Shown here piece after piece: positions 4,073-37,773 of a stretch of DNA of 64,000 bases; the stretch's first letter is position 1, and the number at the start of each line of letters is the position of its first letter. The stretch is from Minisyncoccota bacterium (lineage in GTDB: Bacteria; Patescibacteriota; Minisyncoccia; UBA6257; UBA9933). The notes under the pieces are model-generated. The model worked only from the letters and a program-made list of their open reading frames with translations. It made no database searches and was not told the origin of the DNA. Position numbers and translations under genes: made by a program. The stretch spans positions 16,707 through 80,706 of the forward strand of contig JBAZEU010000002.1 of NCBI GenBank assembly GCA_041653755.1. The letters run 5' to 3'.

Positions 4073-4370
4073 TAATTTGTATATGAAGATATTGTTATAC
4101 ATATTCAGCGGATGAAACACTCAGGCGTCTTATATTTTGCTTGAAGGTGTCCGCTAGATTGGCGGATTTTTTGTTGAAATGATGAACGGAAAGCTGTTTG
4201 AAAATTTAATAAAAGTTTTTATTCCGACTCGAGCGTGTGGAGTAAAAACTTTGCTAAGCATATATTTGTTATCTGTGCTTGGCACCCGAATTTGTTTCCG
4301 CCACATGCGGAGTAACAAATTCGGCAGAATAATATATTCGATATCTCGTTTCCTGAAAAATTTTAGGGAA

Positions 4371-7803
<3,433 letters not shown>

Positions 7804-7919
7804 TCCCTAAATTTTTCAGGAAACGAGAGAGCGAATATATTAAATTTTCAAACCAGAGCACAAAACAAGATTTTGTGCTCGGCCGAACACATAAAGATAT
7901 GTGCTCCGGTTTTAAAAAA

Positions 7920-8030
7920 CTTGCCAGTGATCTACTTGTGTGTGTCCCACCTCTTCCCATTCCGAACAGAGAAGTGAAAGCACATAGGGCCGATGATAGT
8001 CCTTCGGGGCGAAAGTAGGCTTTGCTGGCA
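7920..8030 (+). rRNA. rrf: 5S ribosomal RNA
   Basis: CCCACCTCTTCCCATTCCGAACAGAGAAGTGAAAG ... GCCGATGATAGT ... GAAAGTAGGCTTTGCTGGCA followed by a T7 run. Confidence 0.85.
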
Positions 8031-8768: not shown

Positions 8769-8966
8769 ATGGCGAAATGGAAAGCAACGTATCGAAAAGA
8801 GGGGGTTAACCCGTTCAACCCAAACTACTGGGAGCTCGGCAATTCAATCGGCTCTATCACAACAAAAGAAGTGCCTGACGATACACCCCGCAAAGAAATA
8901 GAGAAGTTTGCGAGGAAAGTAACTCCAAAAGGGTACAGGTTCGTAAAAGTGGAAAAAGTTACGTAA
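8769..8966 (+). CDS. hypothetical small protein (65 aa)
   Basis: ATG 6 nt downstream of a strong AAGGAGG Shine-Dalgarno. Confidence 0.55.
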   Translation: MAKWKATYRKEGVNPFNPNYWELGNSIGSITTKEVPDDTPRKEIEKFARKVTPKGYRFVKVEKVT

Positions 8967-9004
8967 GAAAATATTTTTTGTATGTAATTTGGAAAGGAGG
9001 AATA

Positions 9005-9451
9005 ATGTCACAGAAACAAAAAGTTGTTTACCCCATTTTGAGCCAATCGAAACTGAGAAAACTTACTAAAGAACTGGTCGAGATGGGAGATGAAGGCGTA
9101 GTAAAAATTGATTCCCTCCGTGCGAATAAAGGTACTCTTGCTCTAAATATAAAACTGAGTCATAAAACGGGGTCGTTGAACAATGTATATATAGACGGGC
9201 TTTTGGGAATAGTCGGGTTCGAATTTAACCCCTGTAAGGAATTAGATAGGATATATGGCTCAACAGAAAAGTATTATATTTTCTCGTGGAAAAACGGGTT
9301 ATGGATTGCCCGTGGCGACAATTACTATTACGACGGTTATACTACAATATTGATTGAGTGGGCGAACAGGCTGGACAAGGAAACACGGGAAATTGTTTTA
9401 GACAATGATAGGGGAGAAAGAGTAGACGAACATGGGGATACGATAGAATAA
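9005..9451 (+). CDS. hypothetical protein (148 aa)
   Basis: ATG preceded by GGAAAGGAGG; followed by a strong terminator. Confidence 0.55.
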   Translation: MSQKQKVVYPILSQSKLRKLTKELVEMGDEGVVKIDSLRANKGTLALNIKLSHKTGSLNNVYIDGLLGIVGFEFNPCKELDRIYGSTEKYYIFSWKNGLWIARGDNYYYDGYTTILIEWANRLDKETREIVLDNDRGERVDEHGDTIE

Positions 9452-9469
9452 TGATTTACAAAGAAATCG

Positions 9470-9508
9470 AGGGCTTACTGGAAATTTCCAGTAAGCCCTG
9501 TTTTATTT
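9470..9508 (+). terminator. rho-independent terminator
   Basis: Perfect 11-bp stem gggcttactgg/ccagtaagccc followed by tgttttatttct. Confidence 0.75.
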
Positions 9509-9555
9509 CTAACAAGTTGCGGAGTGAGATTTTATGGGATAAAATGGACTTTATG

Positions 9556-9696
9556 CCCAGTAGTGAGCCGAGCGCTGCGTTTTCCGTAACGCCTCTGGGT
9601 ATACTAAGGTTTTTATTACCACATATAGAACTTGTTAATATTAAATGTCGATTAATAAAAACGATTGGGCGTTAATGCGCTCGATCTACTACTGGG
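9556..9696. repeat. 20-bp inverted repeat pair (cccagtagtgagccgagcgc / gcgctcgatctactactggg) separated by about 100 nt
   Basis: Arms complementary apart from an internal 4-nt stretch (16 of 20); the right arm ends 2 nt before the ATG at 9698. Confidence 0.5.
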
Positions 9697-9697
9697 T

Positions 9698-10447
9698 ATG
9701 AACCCACGAACCGTAAAGCAACTACTCTATTTCTTGTTATACGTAGCTATTTTGGCTGTGATTATTTTTTTGATATATCTTTGGCTTATTCAGCCGAAAT
9801 CGACTTGCTTTGATAACCGTCAGAATCAGAACGAGACCGGCATTGATTGCGGCGGGCCTTGTCAGTCATGCGAAATTAAGACACTTAAACCGTTAACGGC
9901 TCAAAAAATTAATTTTTCTCAAGCGCAGAATAAAGCTATTATCACTTTTGAAATTACTAATTCTAACCAAAATTTCGGCGCTGACAATTTTACTTATACG
10001 ATTGATTTTTATAATAAAGACGGAGCAAAAATCAATTCTTTGAGTAATAATTCGTTTATTTACGCTGCTGAGATAAAAGCAATTTTTGAAGTCGATGAAA
10101 AAGTAAATTTTTCAGAAATCAACAATGCTTCGATCAGTTTTTCTAATGTTCATTGGGTTTCAAAAGAAAATTTCAGCCAGCCGTCAATTGAATTGCAAAA
10201 TCAGAAAATTGTTAATGAAAAACCTTTAAAAATAGAAGGAACCGTTATCAATAAAAATAATTTTGGTATTAACCTTAAATTGATCGGGTTTATCTACGAT
10301 CATTATGGAATTCAAATTAGCGCGTCAAAAACAGAAATTGATAATTTAGGTGCAAAAGGGCAGATAGATTTTCAAATTGTTTTTCCGTCGGACGTTTTAT
10401 TTAACCAGAAAGACAGCAGTCAAGTTTTCATTGAGGCGAAACAATAG
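9698..10447 (+). CDS. hypothetical membrane-anchored protein with a CGGPCQSC motif
   Basis: First ATG (ORF track start at 9665 is a TTG); N-terminal TM helix then a soluble domain. Confidence 0.5.
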   Translation: MNPRTVKQLLYFLLYVAILAVIIFLIYLWLIQPKSTCFDNRQNQNETGIDCGGPCQSCEIKTLKPLTAQKINFSQAQNKAIITFEITNSNQNFGADNFTYTIDFYNKDGAKINSLSNNSFIYAAEIKAIFEVDEKVNFSEINNASISFSNVHWVSKENFSQPSIELQNQKIVNEKPLKIEGTVINKNNFGINLKLIGFIYDHYGIQISASKTEIDNLGAKGQIDFQIVFPSDVLFNQKDSSQVFIEAKQ

Positions 10448-14360: not shown

Positions 14361-14368
14361 AATATTTG

Positions 14369-14440
14369 TGCCCTCGAGAGGAATCGAACCCCTATTTGAA
14401 ACTCCGCAAGCTCCCGTCCTATCCATTGAACGACGAGGGC
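14369..14440 (-). tRNA. tRNA-Arg (anticodon read as GCG)
   Basis: Reverse complement GCCCTCGTCGTTCAATGGATAGGACG...; anticodon stem GGAGC/GTTTC with loop TTGCGGA; T-loop GGTTCGATTCC. Confidence 0.6.
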
Positions 14441-18673: not shown

Positions 18674-19413
18674 TTGAAATATATATTTAAAAATTTCCCA
18701 AGCTCTGCGTTTACTTCCTCAATACTATCAGGAGAATAACGATAGTCATGAGTACTATGCAACTCTTTTATAATCTTGGGTTCGGGAGTATCCTCAAATA
18801 ACTTCCTGACGGTTTCGACTGGTGTAAATTCATCCTGATCGCCATAAATCAAAAGCTTCGATTTCTTACAATTTTTCAAGATTTCTCCCGCATTATATTG
18901 CTCGCCATCTTTCCAATAGGCGATCGGCAATTTGAATTCTTTCTGTTCCTTAGTTTCAGAAGTTCCTGGTGGCAAGTCTCTGTATGATAACTTGTAGCCT
19001 TTATTCATGGCTTCTTTGCCTGGCGCTGTGGGTTCTCCAAAGTTCGCCATGATTGGTACAATGCAGACTACGGCCGAATTCTCACTTGCGAATATCGATA
19101 CAGCAGCTCCTCGACTATGACCCAAAAGCAGAGTCGGTTTATTACCAAAATATTCAATCAGTTCGTTGACTGCTTTTATATAATTTGTGGTCGTATATAA
19201 ATCAATAGCCCCTGGACTTTCCCATGTCCCAGGTGGATCAAAGGCCACTGCATAAAAACCTTGCTTTGCGAGATAATCTGCATGGCTTGAAAAACAAGCG
19301 TAATCTTTAGTATCCAAACGGCCAGGCAAAATCAATGCTAATTTTTTAGCATTCTGATCGCCTCGCGTAAGCACCGCTAATTCAAATGATTTTGTTTTGA
19401 TAAGTTTATCCAT
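18670..19413 (-). CDS. alpha/beta-hydrolase fold esterase/lipase family protein
   Basis: GHSRG nucleophile elbow (GxSxG); start at the internal ATG to avoid a 59-nt overlap. Confidence 0.6.
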   Translation of the reverse strand: MDKLIKTKSFELAVLTRGDQNAKKLALILPGRLDTKDYACFSSHADYLAKQGFYAVAFDPPGTWESPGAIDLYTTTNYIKAVNELIEYFGNKPTLLLGHSRGAAVSIFASENSAVVCIVPIMANFGEPTAPGKEAMNKGYKLSYRDLPPGTSETKEQKEFKLPIAYWKDGEQYNAGEILKNCKKSKLLIYGDQDEFTPVETVRKLFEDTPEPKIIKELHSTHDYRYSPDSIEEVNAELGKFLNIYFK

Positions 19414-19417
19414 ATTA

Positions 19418-19864
19418 TTATTGTCCCCAGTCAATAAGTTCTGTAAATCGCAGATAGAATCCAAATGGATCTTCAACTCTGAAATCTCGCCAGAACGTTT
19501 CGCCGTCCTTTTTGCCCGTCACTGGTTGCTTGATGTTATCTTTTATCTTCGGCGCTATCTCATTATAAAAATCATCCACATGAGCGACGGGAATTGTTAA
19601 TTCGGTGGCGTACCCACGTTTTGTGTCTGTAGGAAAGTTCTTAAAATAAGCCTGGTTGTAGACTCTATCGTTACCGCCGTAAAAATTAAGGATCGTGTCA
19701 CCCTCATTATCATGTCGCCTGAGAACAAGATATCCAGGCTCCGTCGCAGTGGCCTTATTCTCCATAATCGGCTCGAAGCCAAGAAGGCCATAAAATTCCT
19801 TGGCAATGTTAAAATCTGGAACGTGTAATTCGATAATCAAATTGTTGCGTATAGGTAATTTCAT
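19418..19864 (-). CDS. VOC/glyoxalase-bleomycin resistance family protein
   Basis: 148 aa with two beta-alpha-beta-beta-beta modules (ELHVPDFNIAKEFY ...). Confidence 0.5.
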   Translation of the reverse strand: MKLPIRNNLIIELHVPDFNIAKEFYGLLGFEPIMENKATATEPGYLVLRRHDNEGDTILNFYGGNDRVYNQAYFKNFPTDTKRGYATELTIPVAHVDDFYNEIAPKIKDNIKQPVTGKKDGETFWRDFRVEDPFGFYLRFTELIDWGQ

Positions 19865-20463
19865 AATTTTTTATCTAATATCAAATATTTTATGAATTCT
19901 TTTCCAAACTCAGTTACTTTCACAAAAGGAGCAGCGATAGGGCCAACTCTGGATGAGTAATCTGACATCAATATTCCAGCAGTGACTAAATCATAAACAA
20001 GTTCATTTTTATTTTTAGTCTGTTCATAAATTTGATGGAAATCAGTCTTAGAAGTATCTACATCTCTCAAGACTACAAAATCATCAGCATTCAGAATACT
20101 TAAGATATGATACATCCTTTCCAACTCAAATCTATTCTGGTTATCAGATTGAGCAAAGCCCAGAAAAATAGCTCGCATCATTTTTCTTTTTTCTTCGTTT
20201 TTTTCACGAATATATCTCTCCAGAGCATACACAAATCCATCTTGAAATTTCGCATCTCTAAGAATGATCTCGGTGAAAGCTGACGGATTATCCTTAACCA
20301 TCTCAACCCATTCAAGCGCTCTCTGCTCACGAAGTTTCAAGCCCGCACCATATAAAGCCTTACTTAGACCCCAGGCTATATTCAGCCCAGGCAACGCCGA
20401 AGCGATTTGATCAGCGATGACTAATGCGGAGTCTTTTATAATTTGTTTATCTTTTTCGTTCAT
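19861..20463 (-). CDS. hypothetical protein, partner of the Mrr-domain fusion protein
   Basis: 200 aa; start overlaps the upstream gene's stop by 4 nt; no recognisable domain. Confidence 0.55.
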   Translation of the reverse strand: MNEKDKQIIKDSALVIADQIASALPGLNIAWGLSKALYGAGLKLREQRALEWVEMVKDNPSAFTEIILRDAKFQDGFVYALERYIREKNEEKRKMMRAIFLGFAQSDNQNRFELERMYHILSILNADDFVVLRDVDTSKTDFHQIYEQTKNKNELVYDLVTAGILMSDYSSRVGPIAAPFVKVTEFGKEFIKYLILDKKL

Positions 20464-21968
20464 GACTTTTTATTTTTAGATTTCTCTCTTTCAATAACAA
20501 AATCGTAGGTTTTCTTAAACTCATAAACATTCAGGGTTGCCTTTTTATCTGCTTCTTGTCCGATCTGCCGTTCTATCATCCATTGTTCTTCAGGATTTTT
20601 CTTAAGATAGTCTCCTAATTTTTCGCTTTCTGCATGTGTAATTTGGAGATAATATTTTGTGCTGCCTTCAGCGTCTTTATTAAGAATTAAGACTACATCT
20701 TTTGGTTTTAAGAAATTATACCGACCATCACATTCATAAAGGGTATTAAATGATTCATTGCCATGTTTAAGCATGTTAAAATCTGGATCATTTAGGGTTA
20801 TTCCTTTTTCTTCATGAATCGTTCCGATGGTGGGACTTGGAAAAGATTCTGTAAATTTTTTTACACGCTTATAGCCATCCAGAGATTGCTGTCTTTTTTT
20901 AACCTCCAAATATTCATAAGTGCCAGCAATTGGGCCAGTCTTAAAATCAAAATCAACAAATATGTGCGGGAAGTTATGCCATCCATCACCCTTATCGTCT
21001 ATAACCAGCATCTCATCATATCGAATTAACCCGTTACTAAAAAATGTTGCCTGGTGGCGATGGGGCAAATGTTCCCAAAAATCTTCAACCTTATCACGGA
21101 TTTCCTGTTGTTTAGTTCTTTCTTCATGGGAGTCACTATCTCGAAAAACAAGATCGGCGACTCCCGTAAAATCAAACTCTTTCTTTTCTATATCGATATA
21201 AGCAAAATGCTTACGTAAATTTACTATGATTCCAAGAGGATGATATTGAATAAACCTGTATTCGCGCCATCGGGGATGTTCGCCAAAATCTTTATACCCA
21301 TTCTTGTAAGGATATTTCGAATCCTTTGAATCTCGAAGCAAAATTGATTTATAAAAGTCGTTACCCTCGCCGAATGTTCTGTATAACTTATTTTTGCATG
21401 CTACAACCTGCCTTATTTCCGTGGCCCGTGACCGTCTTTTACTAACTAACGAAATTCCAAAAAAGGTAAAAAGAATGCGATCATTTTTTGGGAGATAGAG
21501 CATATCCTCAAGCTCCGCCTTTCCCCAAAGATAAAATTCCATTACGCCTTTGTTCCGCAGCTCTTCTCGAAACGCATCATAAGAATCTTTGGAAAAATTT
21601 GAAGAAGCGGCCAGAATGTATCCGTATGGAGGATTTTTAGAATCAACATCAGAAAGAATTTCTTTTACTCGTTTCGGGCCTATTTCTTTCTCTCTTTTTC
21701 CTTGAATCATCCAAAGATTACCTTCCATAGGGTGTTTTTCTTCTGCCTCGTCACTTACCTCATCGTTTTCAGGCTGGGAATTTTTATAAACTTTTTCATG
21801 GGCGCGGATGTCAAAACCTTCGTCATTTCCGCTCCTGCCAGTTGCTTCGATAGTTTGCCAATCTTTGTAGTCGTAAATAAGCTCTCGAATTAAATCTTCG
21901 AATCGATGAGGGTCTAAATCTTCAAAATGTATTGGCCCGTATGTTCTTGTGACTCTTGATTTCGCCAT
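20460..21968 (-). CDS. Mrr-type restriction-endonuclease (PD-(D/E)xK) N-terminal domain fused to a large unknown C-terminal domain
   Basis: FEDLIRELIY ... TGRSGNDEGFDIRA ... LWMIQGKRE ... GYILAASSNFS matches the Mrr_cat core (D ... QxK); roughly 330 aa C-terminal region unrecognised; start at internal ATG MAKSRV. Confidence 0.65.
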   Translation of the reverse strand: MAKSRVTRTYGPIHFEDLDPHRFEDLIRELIYDYKDWQTIEATGRSGNDEGFDIRAHEKVYKNSQPENDEVSDEAEEKHPMEGNLWMIQGKREKEIGPKRVKEILSDVDSKNPPYGYILAASSNFSKDSYDAFREELRNKGVMEFYLWGKAELEDMLYLPKNDRILFTFFGISLVSKRRSRATEIRQVVACKNKLYRTFGEGNDFYKSILLRDSKDSKYPYKNGYKDFGEHPRWREYRFIQYHPLGIIVNLRKHFAYIDIEKKEFDFTGVADLVFRDSDSHEERTKQQEIRDKVEDFWEHLPHRHQATFFSNGLIRYDEMLVIDDKGDGWHNFPHIFVDFDFKTGPIAGTYEYLEVKKRQQSLDGYKRVKKFTESFPSPTIGTIHEEKGITLNDPDFNMLKHGNESFNTLYECDGRYNFLKPKDVVLILNKDAEGSTKYYLQITHAESEKLGDYLKKNPEEQWMIERQIGQEADKKATLNVYEFKKTYDFVIEREKSKNKKS

Positions 21969-21978
21969 ATTAAACTTG

Positions 21979-22167
21979 CTATTTGTTTTTCTTATTACTT
22001 GTCTTCTCCAAAAAAGCGTGCAAATCTGATTCCTTGATTCTCCAAACCCCAATCTTAGATGCCTTTAACTTTCCAGATTCAATATACCGAGTTACCGATC
22101 GACCACTGACTCTCAGGATTTTTGCTACTTCGGGAATCGTGAGAAGTTTTTCCATTTTGGAATTCAT
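21979..22167 (-). CDS. excisionase/AlpA-type helix-turn-helix DNA-binding protein
   Basis: 62 aa; LLTIPEVAKILRVSGRSVTRYIESGKL ... IGVWRIKESDL is a classic Xis-family HTH. Confidence 0.7.
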   Translation of the reverse strand: MNSKMEKLLTIPEVAKILRVSGRSVTRYIESGKLKASKIGVWRIKESDLHAFLEKTSNKKNK

Positions 22168-22199
22168 AAAATTTATTGACTATTGATACGTCCATTGTA

Positions 22200-22258
22200 G
22201 CTCTACAAATCTTTGTTGTCAAAGTTGGCATTTTTTGTCATAATGGAAATAAATTACA
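22200..22258 (+). promoter_or_regulatory. divergent promoter region (TTGTCA, 17 nt, CATAAT for the plus gene; TTGACT on the facing strand)
   Basis: Hexamers seen in the 97-nt divergent intergenic region. Confidence 0.35.
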
Positions 22259-22264
22259 ATTACT

Positions 22265-22897
22265 ATGAGCCTACCAAAAACAATTTCAGATATCATCAGG
22301 GCTATCCACGCCAAATTAGAGATTGCTCCAGAAAAAGATAGAATTATCGCTATTTCTCTGTGGGATTTCCAAGACCAAAGCGGAGACACCATACCCAAGG
22401 GTGACATGAAAAGTGGACTAAAAAAATTAGCAGAAGATGAAAAACTCTTTCAATTAAAAGACATCCGATGCCTTGATAAATTGGGAAGATTTTCTGGCGA
22501 AGAAATAAAGATCGAAATAGATCGTGAGCGATTTGTAAAATTCTACAAAAAACACCTCCAAGAACAAAAAGCTCCGATCGGTAATATTGAATTCTTAGAC
22601 GATGAGGCATTGTTAAAACTGGGGGATAAAAAATGTCCCTTACCGCCATATAAAAACGAGCACTTTTTCTGCCAAGCCGCTTTCGAGCATCCAATCAATG
22701 AGCCGATTGACTGGTCGATTATTTACGAAAAAATGACGGGCTATTATGAGAAACACTTTGGCAAAACAAAGGATACGAGAGAAAACTGGCATCAGGTATA
22801 CGACACGATGGAAGCAATCAATAAACGAGCGGAAGAATTATTGAATATAGAAAAGTTATTTGTTTGGCGGGAAAAATCGATAAAAAGAACCCGATAA
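22265..22897 (+). CDS. hypothetical protein
   Basis: 210 aa ORF; 9-bp inverted-repeat hairpin and a terminator downstream. Confidence 0.5.
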   Translation: MSLPKTISDIIRAIHAKLEIAPEKDRIIAISLWDFQDQSGDTIPKGDMKSGLKKLAEDEKLFQLKDIRCLDKLGRFSGEEIKIEIDRERFVKFYKKHLQEQKAPIGNIEFLDDEALLKLGDKKCPLPPYKNEHFFCQAAFEHPINEPIDWSIIYEKMTGYYEKHFGKTKDTRENWHQVYDTMEAINKRAEELLNIEKLFVWREKSIKRTR

Positions 22898-27998: not shown

Positions 27999-29723
27999 AT
28001 GGAAAAGCCAGCTCAAAAAATTAAATACTTCCTCTACGCAAGAAAATCATCGGAGAGCGAGGATCGGCAGGTTCAATCCATTGATGACCAGATCGACCGC
28101 CTAAAAGAACTTGCCAGAGATTTGAGCTTGGATATCAAGAAAATATATAAGGAGTCGAAATCAGCAAAAAAGCCAGACAACAGGCCATTGTTTGACGAAA
28201 TGATTCAACGTATTGAAGAAGGTGAGGCTGACGGCATTTTATGCTGGCAAATTAATCGACTCTCAAGAAATCCTATTGATAGCGGAAAGCTAAGCTGGCT
28301 TTTGCAGCAGGGCACGCTTAAATCAATTCAGACCATAGATCGGCAATATCTTCCAGACGATAACGTTATTCTCTTCAGCGTTGAAAGCGGAACGGCCAAT
28401 CAATATATTCTTGATTTAAGAAAGAATGTAAAACGAGGCCAGGCATCAAAACTGGCCAGAGGTTGGATGCCCGCATGCGCTCCCCAGGGTTACTTAAACA
28501 GCAAGACAAAGGAAAAGGGAGATAACGATATTTTTAAAGACCCAGAACGCTTTCCGATGATACGGAGAATGTGGGATTTAATGCTGACAGGAAATTACAC
28601 ACCCCCTCAAATCGCAAAGATCGCGAACGAGCAATGGGGCTACACAACCAGAAAGACGAAACGATCTGGCGGTAATCCTCTATCAAAAAGTGGAATTTAC
28701 AGAATTCTCACAAACATTTTCTATACAGGAATTATTGATTACGGCGGCCAACAATACGAAGGCAAGCATGAACCGATAATCACACTTGAAGAATACGATC
28801 ACGTGCAGAAGCTTCTTGGGAGAAAAGGCAGACCCAGGGCAAAGAGTCATACCTTCGCCTTTACTGGCTCATTCCGCTGTGCTGAATGCGGTTGCCTTTA
28901 TACAGCCGAAGAAAAACAAAAGCTCATCAAGAAAACTGGCAAAATAAAGGAATACACCTATTATCACTGCACCCGACGCAGAGAAGATTATGATTGTTCG
29001 CAAAAGAAAAGCATCACGCTTGATGATTTGGAATTGAAGATTGAAAAAGAAATCGAGAAATACACGATTCTGCCAGAGTTTCTGCAGTGGGCACTGGAAG
29101 GCTTAAGCAAAAAGAACGACACAGAGATCGAGGACAGAACAAAGATTTACGAAATGCAACACAAAACACTCGTCCAAACTCAGAAAGAACTGGACGAGCT
29201 GACTAAAATGAGGTACCGCCAGCTCATTGATGACGAAACATTTGTCAAAGACAAAAACGAACTATCAACCAAAATCGCCCAATTGAAAAATAAGCTCAGG
29301 GAAACTGAGGCCAGGGCTGAACGCTGGCTTGAATTAACCGAAAATACTTTCAGCTTCGCTACTTACGCACGATCAGCATTTATTAAGGCCAGTGAAATAG
29401 GCAAGGCAGGGTTAGAACTGAAGAAAGAAATACTTCTGGCATTGGGCCAAAGCCCTAAAATTAAAGACGGAGAGCTCGTGATCGAGCCCAATGAATGGTT
29501 TGTGCCAATACAAAAAGGCTATCCTGCACTTGAAAAGAAATACTTAGCGTTAGAACCGACGAAATTGCCACTAAATAAAGCAAAAACAGAGGCTTTGGCC
29601 TCTGTTCGTGCACACTGGCGGAGAGGGAGGGATTCGAACCCTCGGGGCCCTTTCGAACCCAACATCTTAGCAGGATGCTGCTTTAAGCCACTCAGCCACC
29701 TCTCCTTGTTATATCTCGGTTAG
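27999..29723 (+). CDS. large serine recombinase (resolvase N-domain + recombinase domain + zinc ribbon); ORF reads into the tRNA-Ser 3' end
   Basis: YARKSSESEDRQVQSIDDQ with catalytic Ser; CWQINRLSRN (DRLSR-type); zinc ribbon CAECG ... HCTRRREDYDC; the last ~35 codons overlap the tRNA at 29616-29705. Confidence 0.8.
   Translation: MEKPAQKIKYFLYARKSSESEDRQVQSIDDQIDRLKELARDLSLDIKKIYKESKSAKKPDNRPLFDEMIQRIEEGEADGILCWQINRLSRNPIDSGKLSWLLQQGTLKSIQTIDRQYLPDDNVILFSVESGTANQYILDLRKNVKRGQASKLARGWMPACAPQGYLNSKTKEKGDNDIFKDPERFPMIRRMWDLMLTGNYTPPQIAKIANEQWGYTTRKTKRSGGNPLSKSGIYRILTNIFYTGIIDYGGQQYEGKHEPIITLEEYDHVQKLLGRKGRPRAKSHTFAFTGSFRCAECGCLYTAEEKQKLIKKTGKIKEYTYYHCTRRREDYDCSQKKSITLDDLELKIEKEIEKYTILPEFLQWALEGLSKKNDTEIEDRTKIYEMQHKTLVQTQKELDELTKMRYRQLIDDETFVKDKNELSTKIAQLKNKLRETEARAERWLELTENTFSFATYARSAFIKASEIGKAGLELKKEILLALGQSPKIKDGELVIEPNEWFVPIQKGYPALEKKYLALEPTKLPLNKAKTEALASVRAHWRRGRDSNPRGPFEPNILAGCCFKPLSHLSLLYLG
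29616..29705 (-). tRNA. tRNA-Ser (anticodon GCT), type II, CCA encoded
   Basis: Reverse complement GGAGAGGTGGCTGAGTGG ...; anticodon stem CATC/GATG with loop CTGCTAA; long variable arm; GGTTCGAATCC; ends CCA. Confidence 0.8.
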
Positions 29724-29954: not shown

Positions 29955-30082
29955 GTCTTTTATCGGTTTTATACTCAGCCCCAGCCTAAGGCTGGTCCGC
30001 CTCGGGCGGAACCTCTCCTTGTTAAAGCCGACGCTTATTTTTCCTTGTAATTATCTACAATTTCTGCTAATTTTACAAGATA

Positions 30083-37595: not shown

Positions 37596-37696
37596 GGGGC
37601 CTTAGCTCAGTGCTAGAGCGCCATGTTAAACCGTGATAAGAAGGATCACGGTTTGATTTATCGCGGAGGTCGTAGGTTGGATTCCTACAGGCTCCA
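37596..37696 (+). tRNA. atypical 101-nt tRNA-Ala-like gene with a 27-nt perfect hairpin inserted in the anticodon-arm region
   Basis: Acceptor GGGGCCT/AGGCTCC with G3-U70, D-arm GCTCAGTGCTAGAGC, GGAGGTC before T-arm GTAGG-TTGGATT-CCTAC (all Ala-like), but no canonical anticodon arm; 10-bp stem AAACCGTGAT/ATCACGGTTT with loop AAGAAGG at 37634-37660. Confidence 0.45.
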
Positions 37697-37700
37697 CTTC

Positions 37701-37773
37701 GCGGCCCTAACTCAACGGAAGAGTGCTCCTGACCAGGGAGAAGTTGCGGGTTCGAATCCCGTGGGCCCGACCA
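37701..37773 (+). tRNA. degenerate tRNA-like element with canonical T-arm and encoded CCA (identity undetermined; possible pseudogene)
   Basis: GCGGG-TTCGAAT-CCCGT T-arm, 3' GGGCCCG-A-CCA, D-arm ACTC-AACGGAA-GAGT, but acceptor positions 1-2 unpaired and no clean anticodon stem. Confidence 0.35.

Follow-up and report, generated by a model that had tools for sequence, protein, structure and literature searches.

Enzymes that restrict modified DNA are modular, joining sensor domains of the PUA superfamily (YTH, SRA, EVE and ASCH) to nucleases of the PD-(D/E)xK, HNH, PLD or GIY-YIG type (PMC6765204, PMC7641849, PMC12707154, PMC12191111). Some of them carry the nuclease at the N terminus and the sensor at the C terminus, and methyltransferases are rarely encoded next to them (PMC6765204, PMC7641849, PMC12191111). 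The MspJI family combines SRA with an Mrr-like PD-QxK nuclease, TspA15I and VcaM4I are EVE-HNH proteins and YenY4I has the order EVE-DUF3427-PD-(D/E)xK (PMC6765204, PMC12707154). The END nucleases consist of a PLD nuclease and an inactive EndoIII domain (PMC12191111). A 64,000-nucleotide stretch of a Minisyncoccota bacterium genome (contig JBAZEU010000002.1, positions 16,707 to 80,706; this whole stretch is called the window) encodes a protein of 502 amino acids, here named Mrr502, that probably extends this group: a solitary, widespread Type IV-like endonuclease with an Mrr_cat domain and an ASCH-like end, co-transcribed with an excisionase (Xis)-type helix-turn-helix regulator and with a promiscuous accessory gene for a winged-helix protein behind it. 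As a whole, the locus is best explained as a small islet of defence genes that adjoins an integrative element, not as a dedicated three-component system.

Three minus-strand open reading frames make up the locus: HTH62 (21979-22167, 62 amino acids), Mrr502 (20460-21968) and P200 (19861-20463, 200 amino acids). An earlier sequence-only reading had described three linked genes with a gap of 10 nucleotides (nt) and an overlap of 4 nt, and they are indeed there: the gap between the HTH62 stop and the Mrr502 ATG reads CAAGTTTAAT, and the Mrr502 and P200 genes share an ATGA. The length of 503 amino acids given for the large protein needs correcting, since the start codon is the ATG at 21968 and the product has 502.

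The Mrr_cat domain (Pfam PF04471), a PD-(D/E)xK core, occupies residues 17-135 of Mrr502 (21564-21920, minus strand) and scores 32.2 bits against a cut-off of 21. The motifs TGRSGNDEGFDIRA, IQGKRE and ILAASSNFS, from which the sequence-only reading had recognized an N-terminal Mrr-type core and expected this family, are all present. In a cross-phylum alignment of 19 sequences, D53 (in FDIRA) and Q89-x-K91 (in IQGKRE) are invariant and constitute an Mrr-type D...QxK site, while residues 58-82 form a variable acidic insert within the nuclease core. The nuclease is followed by a highly conserved linker, residues 151-232 (ELEDML..PKNDRILFTFFGISLVSKRRSR; 21273-21518, minus strand), which is not transmembrane (maximum Kyte-Doolittle value 0.87) and which has low predicted local distance difference test (pLDDT) values at residues 150-183. 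A middle beta-rich domain, residues 233-380 (20829-21272, minus strand), is confidently modelled at pLDDT 80-94. The chain ends in a predicted ASCH/PUA-like beta-barrel at approximately residues 381-495 (20484-20828, minus strand), the borders of which are taken from the beta-alpha-beta pattern of the model. Mean pairwise identity is 78-85% in the nuclease, 71% in the linker, 48% in the middle beta domain and 39% in the ASCH-like end. Because conservation drops along the chain in this way, the alignment suggests a fixed catalytic engine attached to a diversifying specificity end. The idea that Mrr502 or P200 is a membrane toxin was considered and rejected, as neither has a hydrophobic stretch at transmembrane level.

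In the AlphaFold2 model, residues 200-500 of Mrr502 have pLDDT values of 80-95. The top structural match of the C-terminal fold is YqfB, with the 5-methylcytosine-binding N-domain of T. gammatolerans McrB and YTH domains ranking lower. Foldseek independently ranked ASCH domains first (3s9x with probability 0.99 and 3iuw with 0.91). As modelled, the C terminus is a pseudo-barrel of the ASCH/PUA-like fold, which has five or six strands. Searches of this region against Pfam, NCBIfam, PHROGs and PADLOC gave no assignment, and the only match of Mrr502 among PDB sequences was the non-significant 2qp2 (E = 0.24). The sequence-only reading had seen no recognizable motif here, a statement that stands with regard to Pfam and that the modelled fold now supersedes in part.

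Like the modular modification-dependent enzymes, Mrr502 has a PUA-superfamily-type barrel and a nuclease in a single chain, a variable sensor end and no cognate methyltransferase; additionally, its nuclease resembles that of MspJI in being Mrr-like with a D...QxK site. It differs from these enzymes in that its predicted reader is ASCH-like instead of SRA or EVE and lies at the C terminus, and in about 230 extra residues (linker and middle beta domain) between the nuclease and the predicted reader. No sequence similarity was found between Mrr502 and characterised modification-dependent enzymes or PDB entries. The Type IV enzyme Mrr of Escherichia coli also has an Mrr_cat domain and, as in Mrr502, the D/QxK variant of the catalytic motif. 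In the E. coli enzyme a winged-helix sensor precedes the nuclease, which is C-terminal, whereas Mrr502 has an N-terminal nuclease and a beta-rich, ASCH-like C terminus, and the reversed domain order that had been read from the sequence is confirmed. With the END nucleases Mrr502 shares a single chain in which the catalytic domain comes first and the sensor last (PMC12191111). END nucleases differ from it, as do PvuRts1I and AbaSI, in having a PLD or Vsr-like nuclease and another sensor fold. An N-terminal nuclease and a C-terminal sensor are the arrangement of PvuRts1I and AbaSI as well.

Homologues of Mrr502 form 1,404 clusters at 90% identity. The best 120 of these clusters are nearly all 490-530 amino acids long and 50-80% identical, and they come from Patescibacteria, delta-, gamma- and betaproteobacteria, Cyanobacteriota and an Asgard archaeon; the family as a whole ranges over Patescibacteria, Proteobacteria, Bacteroidota, Cyanobacteria and Asgard archaea. 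A genome scan recovered 73 Mrr502 loci from a wider range of taxa than the homologue search, and approximately nine of the 73 hold truncated or frameshifted copies. Cultured hosts include Pedobacter antarcticus ATCC 51969, Mucilaginibacter, Acidovorax, Hydrogenophaga, Ruegeria, Bradyrhizobium and Caenimonas. At these 73 loci, tblastn found no homologue of HTH62, of P200, of the 148-amino-acid gene that follows P200 or of the 210-amino-acid gene divergent from HTH62 within 6 kb of Mrr502, and profile hidden Markov models of the HTH_17 genes that head P200 operons and of 150 near and remote P200 relatives did not place either kind of gene beside Mrr502 at any locus. Clustering of all neighbours revealed no conserved one, with no family common to more than five of the 73 loci. 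Among the 106 adjacent proteins of at least 100 amino acids, the commonest Pfam families (N6_Mtase, Resolvase, Recombinase and HSDR_N_2) occur three times each and the rest are a mix of restriction-modification, helicase, recombinase and plain housekeeping proteins. Methyltransferases are scarce in this set (three N6_Mtase and one C5 DNA_methylase). The closest relatives of Mrr502 (74-80% identity) follow GmrSD_N, Type III-like ResIII, HsdR or small unknown genes, and none is accompanied by P200. Mrr502 is a solitary gene with no obligatory cognate methyltransferase. Restriction-modification, GmrSD or recombinase genes neighbour it at some loci and, taken with the truncated and frameshifted copies, they show it behaving like a mobile defence gene.

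P200 (19861-20463, minus strand) has a different distribution and different company. It comprises a conserved helical N-domain, residues 1-135 (20059-20463), and a C-terminal winged helix-turn-helix, approximately residues 136-200 (19864-20058), without a transmembrane segment. It has no match in Pfam, NCBIfam, PHROG or PADLOC and none among PDB sequences at E <= 10. The earlier description of a 200-residue protein lacking any recognizable domain is accurate as to Pfam families and overlooks the helical domain and the winged helix. At least 231 close homologues exist, and those that are named are almost all from Patescibacteria. An exhaustive profile search of 1.84 billion representatives yielded 340 clusters, many of which are relatives of 230-300 amino acids whose similarity is confined to approximately the first 135 residues. 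Apart from a single fusion protein, P0329, the relatives of P200 matched nothing in Pfam.

The neighbourhoods of P200 were compared at 66 loci from metagenomes and metagenome-assembled genomes. Its gene stands between Type III Mod and Res genes in the order HTH_17-Mod-P200-Res (L126, L127 and L137), in the order HTH_17-P200-Res (L104 and L111), and before HsdS inside Type I operons (L107, L113, L115, L118, L130 and L133), once right after an inserted AbiEi/AbiEii pair. Five loci (L077, L078, L083, L085 and L088) have P200 between a PifA-like KAP NTPase (PADLOC E = 9e-94) and a membrane protein of 170 amino acids, two (L079 and L080) have it before DUF2726, and there are single cases beside HEPN, AbiJ/AbiU2, PycTM and others. 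The spacing between P200 and its neighbours is usually an overlap or a gap of no more than 20 nt, and HTH_17 genes head seven other P200-containing operons. Mrr502 lies upstream of P200 at one of the 66 loci, L081, a contig 100% identical to the window. P200 is a separate, promiscuous family associated with defence islands and not a dedicated partner of Mrr502. The proposal of one undescribed three-gene defence or toxin module therefore fails on co-conservation, the combination being absent from all 73 Mrr502 loci and present among the P200 loci only in the identical contig. What the sequence-only reading said of the defence flavour of the locus fared better, as both families sit among restriction-modification and abortive-infection (Abi) genes elsewhere, and its failure to match the genes to a named system agrees with PADLOC, which returned no significant match for Mrr502 and none for P200.

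Small genes lodged in restriction-modification operons provide the nearest precedent for P200, and AbiE as well as stand-alone EVE and ASCH proteins are known from Type I loci (PMC7641849). P200 resembles such genes in where it is inserted (between hsdM and hsdS or mod and res, or immediately before the gene of a nuclease subunit) and in its DNA-binding winged helix; it differs from them in having no sequence or profile match to any and in lying downstream of the nuclease in the window. PrrC/Rlo genes and controller (C) proteins are further examples of accessory genes inside restriction-modification operons. A role as a C protein would suit the winged helix and the frequent location of P200 just upstream of Res, HsdS or DUF2726, yet C proteins are small Xre-type helix-turn-helix proteins that bind C-boxes and whose genes immediately precede the R gene, while P200 has 200 amino acids with an extra helical domain of 135 and is found downstream of the nuclease here. 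P200 illustrates the shuffling of small genes into restriction-modification operons and provides a new marker for defence islands of the Candidate Phyla Radiation, whose immune repertoire is poorly charted. Near P200 genes at two other loci (L090:261-1706 and L097:2379-3938, both on the minus strand) are proteins of 481-519 amino acids that fuse a LexA DNA-binding domain, an S24 self-cleaving peptidase and an N6_N4 DNA methyltransferase, an unusual architecture that would tie methylation to an SOS-like signal.

The close packing of HTH62, Mrr502 and P200 has to be read against the rest of the window, where adjacent genes of one strand have a median spacing of 6 nt and, of 49 such pairs, 28 lie no more than 10 nt apart. 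The P200 stop overlaps the start of the next gene, again in an ATGA. This gene (19418-19864, minus strand) encodes 148 amino acids without a family match, belongs to no module and, among the P200 loci, occurs elsewhere only in the identical contig L081; it shows that the run outlasts the three genes. The packed minus-strand run extends to 15561 through eight further unrelated genes, including those for an alpha/beta hydrolase, DUF5680, an HhH-GPD glycosylase homologue and PNPOx. From 19000 to 22600, the minus strand has no terminator-like site. Because the spacing is at background, the run continues and terminator-like sites were not found, cutting it into exactly three genes is arbitrary. The tight spacing of the three is uninformative, as it does not rise above background. 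This is a caution for genome scans in general: in streamlined genomes the overlap of start and stop codons is not evidence of a functional module.

A consensus scan placed a near-consensus sigma-70-type promoter (TTGACA-17-TACAAT, 11 of 12 positions) at 22194-22222 on the minus strand, 27 nt upstream of the HTH62 start. It is the best-scoring site of the region in a scan in which the total number of sites was not above shuffled expectation. HTH62 probably opens a long leftward transcript. On the plus strand, a promoter-like site with an extended TG (22216-22244, 10 of 12 positions) lies back-to-back with the minus-strand site and partly overlaps it. The promoter region (22168-22264) has no convincing operator palindromes, and no RNA elements were found in the region.

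HTH62 (21979-22167, minus strand), the first gene of the leftward unit, encodes a DNA-binding protein of the HTH_17/excisionase family with an isoelectric point of 10.3. Its assignment in the sequence-only reading as an excisionase/AlpA-type protein is supported by Pfam PF12728 (HTH_17; E = 1.9e-16, 60.5 bits against a cut-off of 27), by NCBIfam TIGR01764 'excise' (39.9 bits, cut-off 28.8) and by PHROG families of excisionases and regulators. PADLOC additionally matched it to mad1 (E = 2.4e-8). HTH62 is comparable to MAD1, the helix-turn-helix protein of MADS, and to Xis/AlpA regulators of the HTH_17 family as a 62-residue HTH_17 protein that heads a defence-type transcript. It differs from MAD1 in scoring far below the NCBIfam equivalog cut-off (20.5 bits against 80), and no other MADS components were seen nearby.

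Some links between the Mrr502 and P200 families remain. The fusion protein P0329 (514 amino acids) joins a P200 N-domain (hhalign probability 99.5%, E = 6e-23) to a C-terminal Mrr_cat (23.7 bits) or CARF-associated PD-(D/E)xK-like nuclease domain. It is the one fusion of the P200 N-domain among the 150 representatives listed, and its Mrr_cat domain is not close to that of Mrr502. By its domain composition, P0329 is a hint of the Rosetta-stone type that ties P200-like domains to Mrr-type nucleases. A multi-pass membrane protein of 165-177 amino acids, TM170, is a further connection. Its gene follows Mrr502 homologues after 2 nt at L149-L151 (L150:4051-4563 and L149:2106-2606), and copies 80-87% identical to these follow P200 homologues with an ATGA overlap at L082-L085 (L085:5585-6097 and L082:981-1478). 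More distant relatives (43-65%) follow P200 at L088 (3689-4210, with an 8-nt gap) and at L091 (1989-2522, overlapping). Neither the window nor any of the 73 genome loci contains TM170. The window has no synteny with the contigs that carry Mrr502-TM170 or P200-TM170 beyond the genes themselves, and no flanking synteny explains the sharing of TM170. These observations suggest that Mrr502, P200, TM170 and HTH_17 genes belong to one set of cargo genes that is exchanged among related Patescibacteria elements, and P200 may have a general affinity for systems that contain nucleases. One of the contigs with Mrr502 and TM170 holds another defence islet, in which a stand-alone ASCH/DUF3850 protein and AbiTii are encoded 2 kb downstream of the Mrr502 homologue, beside a serine recombinase (L149:4193-5384).

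Mrr502 is read as a Type IV-like endonuclease because it is built in the way that the published modular model describes for modification-dependent enzymes. The gene layout, the domain and fold assignments, the solitary distribution of Mrr502 and the changing contexts of P200 are shown by the analysis; we infer that the activity of Mrr502 depends on modification and that its target is DNA and not RNA. Mrr502 would be a self-sufficient single-chain endonuclease with an N-terminal nuclease, a linker, a middle beta domain and a variable C-terminal barrel, and the barrel would recognise a modified base flipped out of incoming DNA and thereby license cleavage. Host DNA would lack the mark, making a methyltransferase unnecessary. 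HTH62, located at back-to-back promoters common to the replication block of the adjacent element, would probably set the expression of the cargo region. P200 would be an independent accessory gene, mainly of Patescibacteria, transcribed together with the restriction or abortive-infection gene next to which it happens to insert, and its product would most likely bind DNA and control the nearby nuclease activity or serve as an adaptor for it. Nothing in the locus contradicts current understanding.

Several points weigh against this account. The ASCH-likeness of Mrr502 exists at the level of fold only: Pfam searches gave no ASCH, PUA, EVE, YTH or SRA match outside Mrr_cat at E <= 0.1, hhalign against E. 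coli YqfB returned a probability of 0.8%, and the C-terminal domain borders are approximate as the fold tools give no aligned ranges. The nuclease itself is poorly modelled, with pLDDT below 50 at residues 1-93, a consequence of the shallow alignment. PADLOC-DB v2 contains no significant match for Mrr502, the only one being PDC-S02 (E = 0.007 over 43 residues); the family has no record in the phage collection and only three weak matches among plasmids. At more than 70% identity across phyla, the N-terminal half is conserved to a degree unusual among defence genes. ASCH domains can also be RNA-binding or enzymatic (YqfB is an N4-acetylcytidine amidohydrolase), so a reader of DNA modification is one interpretation among others. 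Finally, the P0329 fusion and the adjacency of TM170 leave the full independence of Mrr502 and P200 in this genome unproven, and a lineage-specific functional link is possible.

The last of these points leads to the proposal that Mrr502 and P200 form a two-gene system in this lineage, with P200 as a plug-in adaptor or regulator that physically modulates Mrr502 through winged-helix DNA targeting or gating of its activity. P200 is almost always in an operon with a restriction or abortive-infection enzyme, HTH_17 heads seven other such operons, P0329 brings the P200 N-domain and Mrr_cat together, and the position of TM170 behind one family or the other indicates a shared gene pool. The partners of P200, which include HsdS, Type III Res, PifA, AbiEii, a muramidase and membrane proteins, are nevertheless too heterogeneous for one physical mechanism, the single fusion listed carries an Mrr_cat domain that is not close to that of Mrr502, Mrr502 occurs without P200 elsewhere and tight spacing counts for little in these genomes. 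Such a system is unlikely. A broader version, in which P200, HTH_17 heads and TM170 together are a plug-in accessory module of Patescibacteria that docks on diverse restriction and abortive-infection nucleases, with Mrr502 two-component here and its nuclease gated or targeted by the winged helix or the helical domain, is drawn from the P0329 fusion and the network of pairwise adjacencies among Mrr502, P200 and TM170, and is quite unlikely. Most improbable is the proposal that all three genes constitute a dedicated defence or toxin-antitoxin system of regulator, nuclease effector and obligate partner or antitoxin. The three are transcribed in one direction and closely spaced (a gap of 10 nt, then an overlap of ATGA), they have one upstream promoter with no internal terminator seen, and they sit in a defence and mobile region, but such spacing is the norm here and the run passes into unrelated genes. 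The neighbourhood counts given above, in which no Mrr502 locus has an HTH or P200-like gene and the one P200 locus with Mrr502 duplicates the window, and the other neighbours of the closest Mrr502 relatives also speak against it. A toxin that depends on an antitoxin would have it as a neighbour in other genomes too, yet Mrr502 is alone at all other loci examined.

Other proposals concern the single proteins. Mrr502 could instead be a nuclease that is directed at RNA or serves abortive infection, or a housekeeping enzyme acting on nucleic acids, with an ASCH-like domain that binds modified RNA. ASCH and PUA domains are classically RNA-binding, the top structural match acts on N4-acetylcytidine, conservation of the nuclease half across phyla is unusually strong and many neighbours are housekeeping genes. 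Against this, the family is patchily distributed with truncated and frameshifted copies, its sensor end is variable, restriction-modification, GmrSD and recombinase genes adjoin it at several loci, and Mrr_cat domains are typically DNA nucleases; we regard this alternative as very unlikely. HTH62, for its part, might be the excisionase (recombination-directionality factor) or a lifecycle switch of the neighbouring element and only incidentally lie upstream of the nuclease, an idea that is compatible with a solitary endonuclease and that we hold tentatively, as a possibility somewhat on the unlikely side. The TIGR01764 score above cut-off and the PHROG excisionase families favour it, as do divergent promoters that face a DUF5659/primase block and a serine recombinase 6 kb away. 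HTH62 is 10 nt from Mrr502, however, and necessarily co-transcribed with it, HTH_17 genes also head restriction-modification operons containing P200, and HTH62 resembles the MAD1 regulator of MADS.

A solitary Type IV-like endonuclease stays the preferred explanation of Mrr502, which represents a large, uncharacterised family that is annotated only as 'restriction endonuclease' and goes undetected by PADLOC. If Mrr502 reads a base modification through its ASCH-like domain, an experimentally untested type of reader would be added to the Type IV repertoire, and the enzyme would be a potential reagent for mapping that modification. The existence of cultured hosts makes Mrr502 testable in culture.

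The region is bracketed by tRNA-Arg (14368-14440) and tRNA-Ser (29616-29705), the latter adjoined by a serine recombinase, in agreement with the location between these tRNAs given in the sequence-only reading. Divergent from HTH62, a plus-strand gene of 210 amino acids (22265-22897) is the first of a mobile-element block that continues with DUF5659, a Toprim primase-helicase and unknown genes, followed by YceG/MltG and the large serine recombinase that abuts tRNA-Ser. This block looks like an integrative element, and its guanine-plus-cytosine content (0.43-0.44 in the 23-29 kb region) is higher than that of the surroundings. The HTH62-Mrr502-P200 stretch lies directly beside the element across the divergent promoters and has the composition of the surrounding genome. 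A search for att-type direct repeats that would bound an island gave only short, chance-level repeats and did not fix the ends of the element. The paired promoter-like sites (22194-22244) between HTH62 and the 210-amino-acid gene could act as a switch that regulates the element.

A 65%-identical homologue of the 210-amino-acid gene is divergent from another P200-containing block (L097/L125), where homologues of the DUF5659, 210-amino-acid and YceG genes of the window surround the block (516-1594 and 8912-9880). The cargo there is different and includes a LexA-methyltransferase, an unknown protein of 295 amino acids and a muramidase, which suggests a related element or a hot spot with different cargo. 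In the window, the serine recombinase reading frame (27999-29723) runs antisense across the entire tRNA-Ser(gct) gene, and 2 nt separate the end of the YceG/MltG gene, of a housekeeping type, from the start of the recombinase. The 14-nt sequence ACCTCTCCTTGTTA is repeated exactly, at 29698 and at 30011. Farther from the locus, the 23S rRNA match (4362-7813) spans 3,452 nt compared with a model of 2,925 nt, implying approximately 500 nt of insertions; it is followed by 5S (7923-8030), and there is no 16S within the window, meaning that the rRNA genes are unlinked. A 101-nt Rfam tRNA match at 37596-37696 (45.6 bits), directly before tRNA-Gly (37702-37773), was not called by ARAGORN and may be a tRNA that contains an intron or is atypical in another way.

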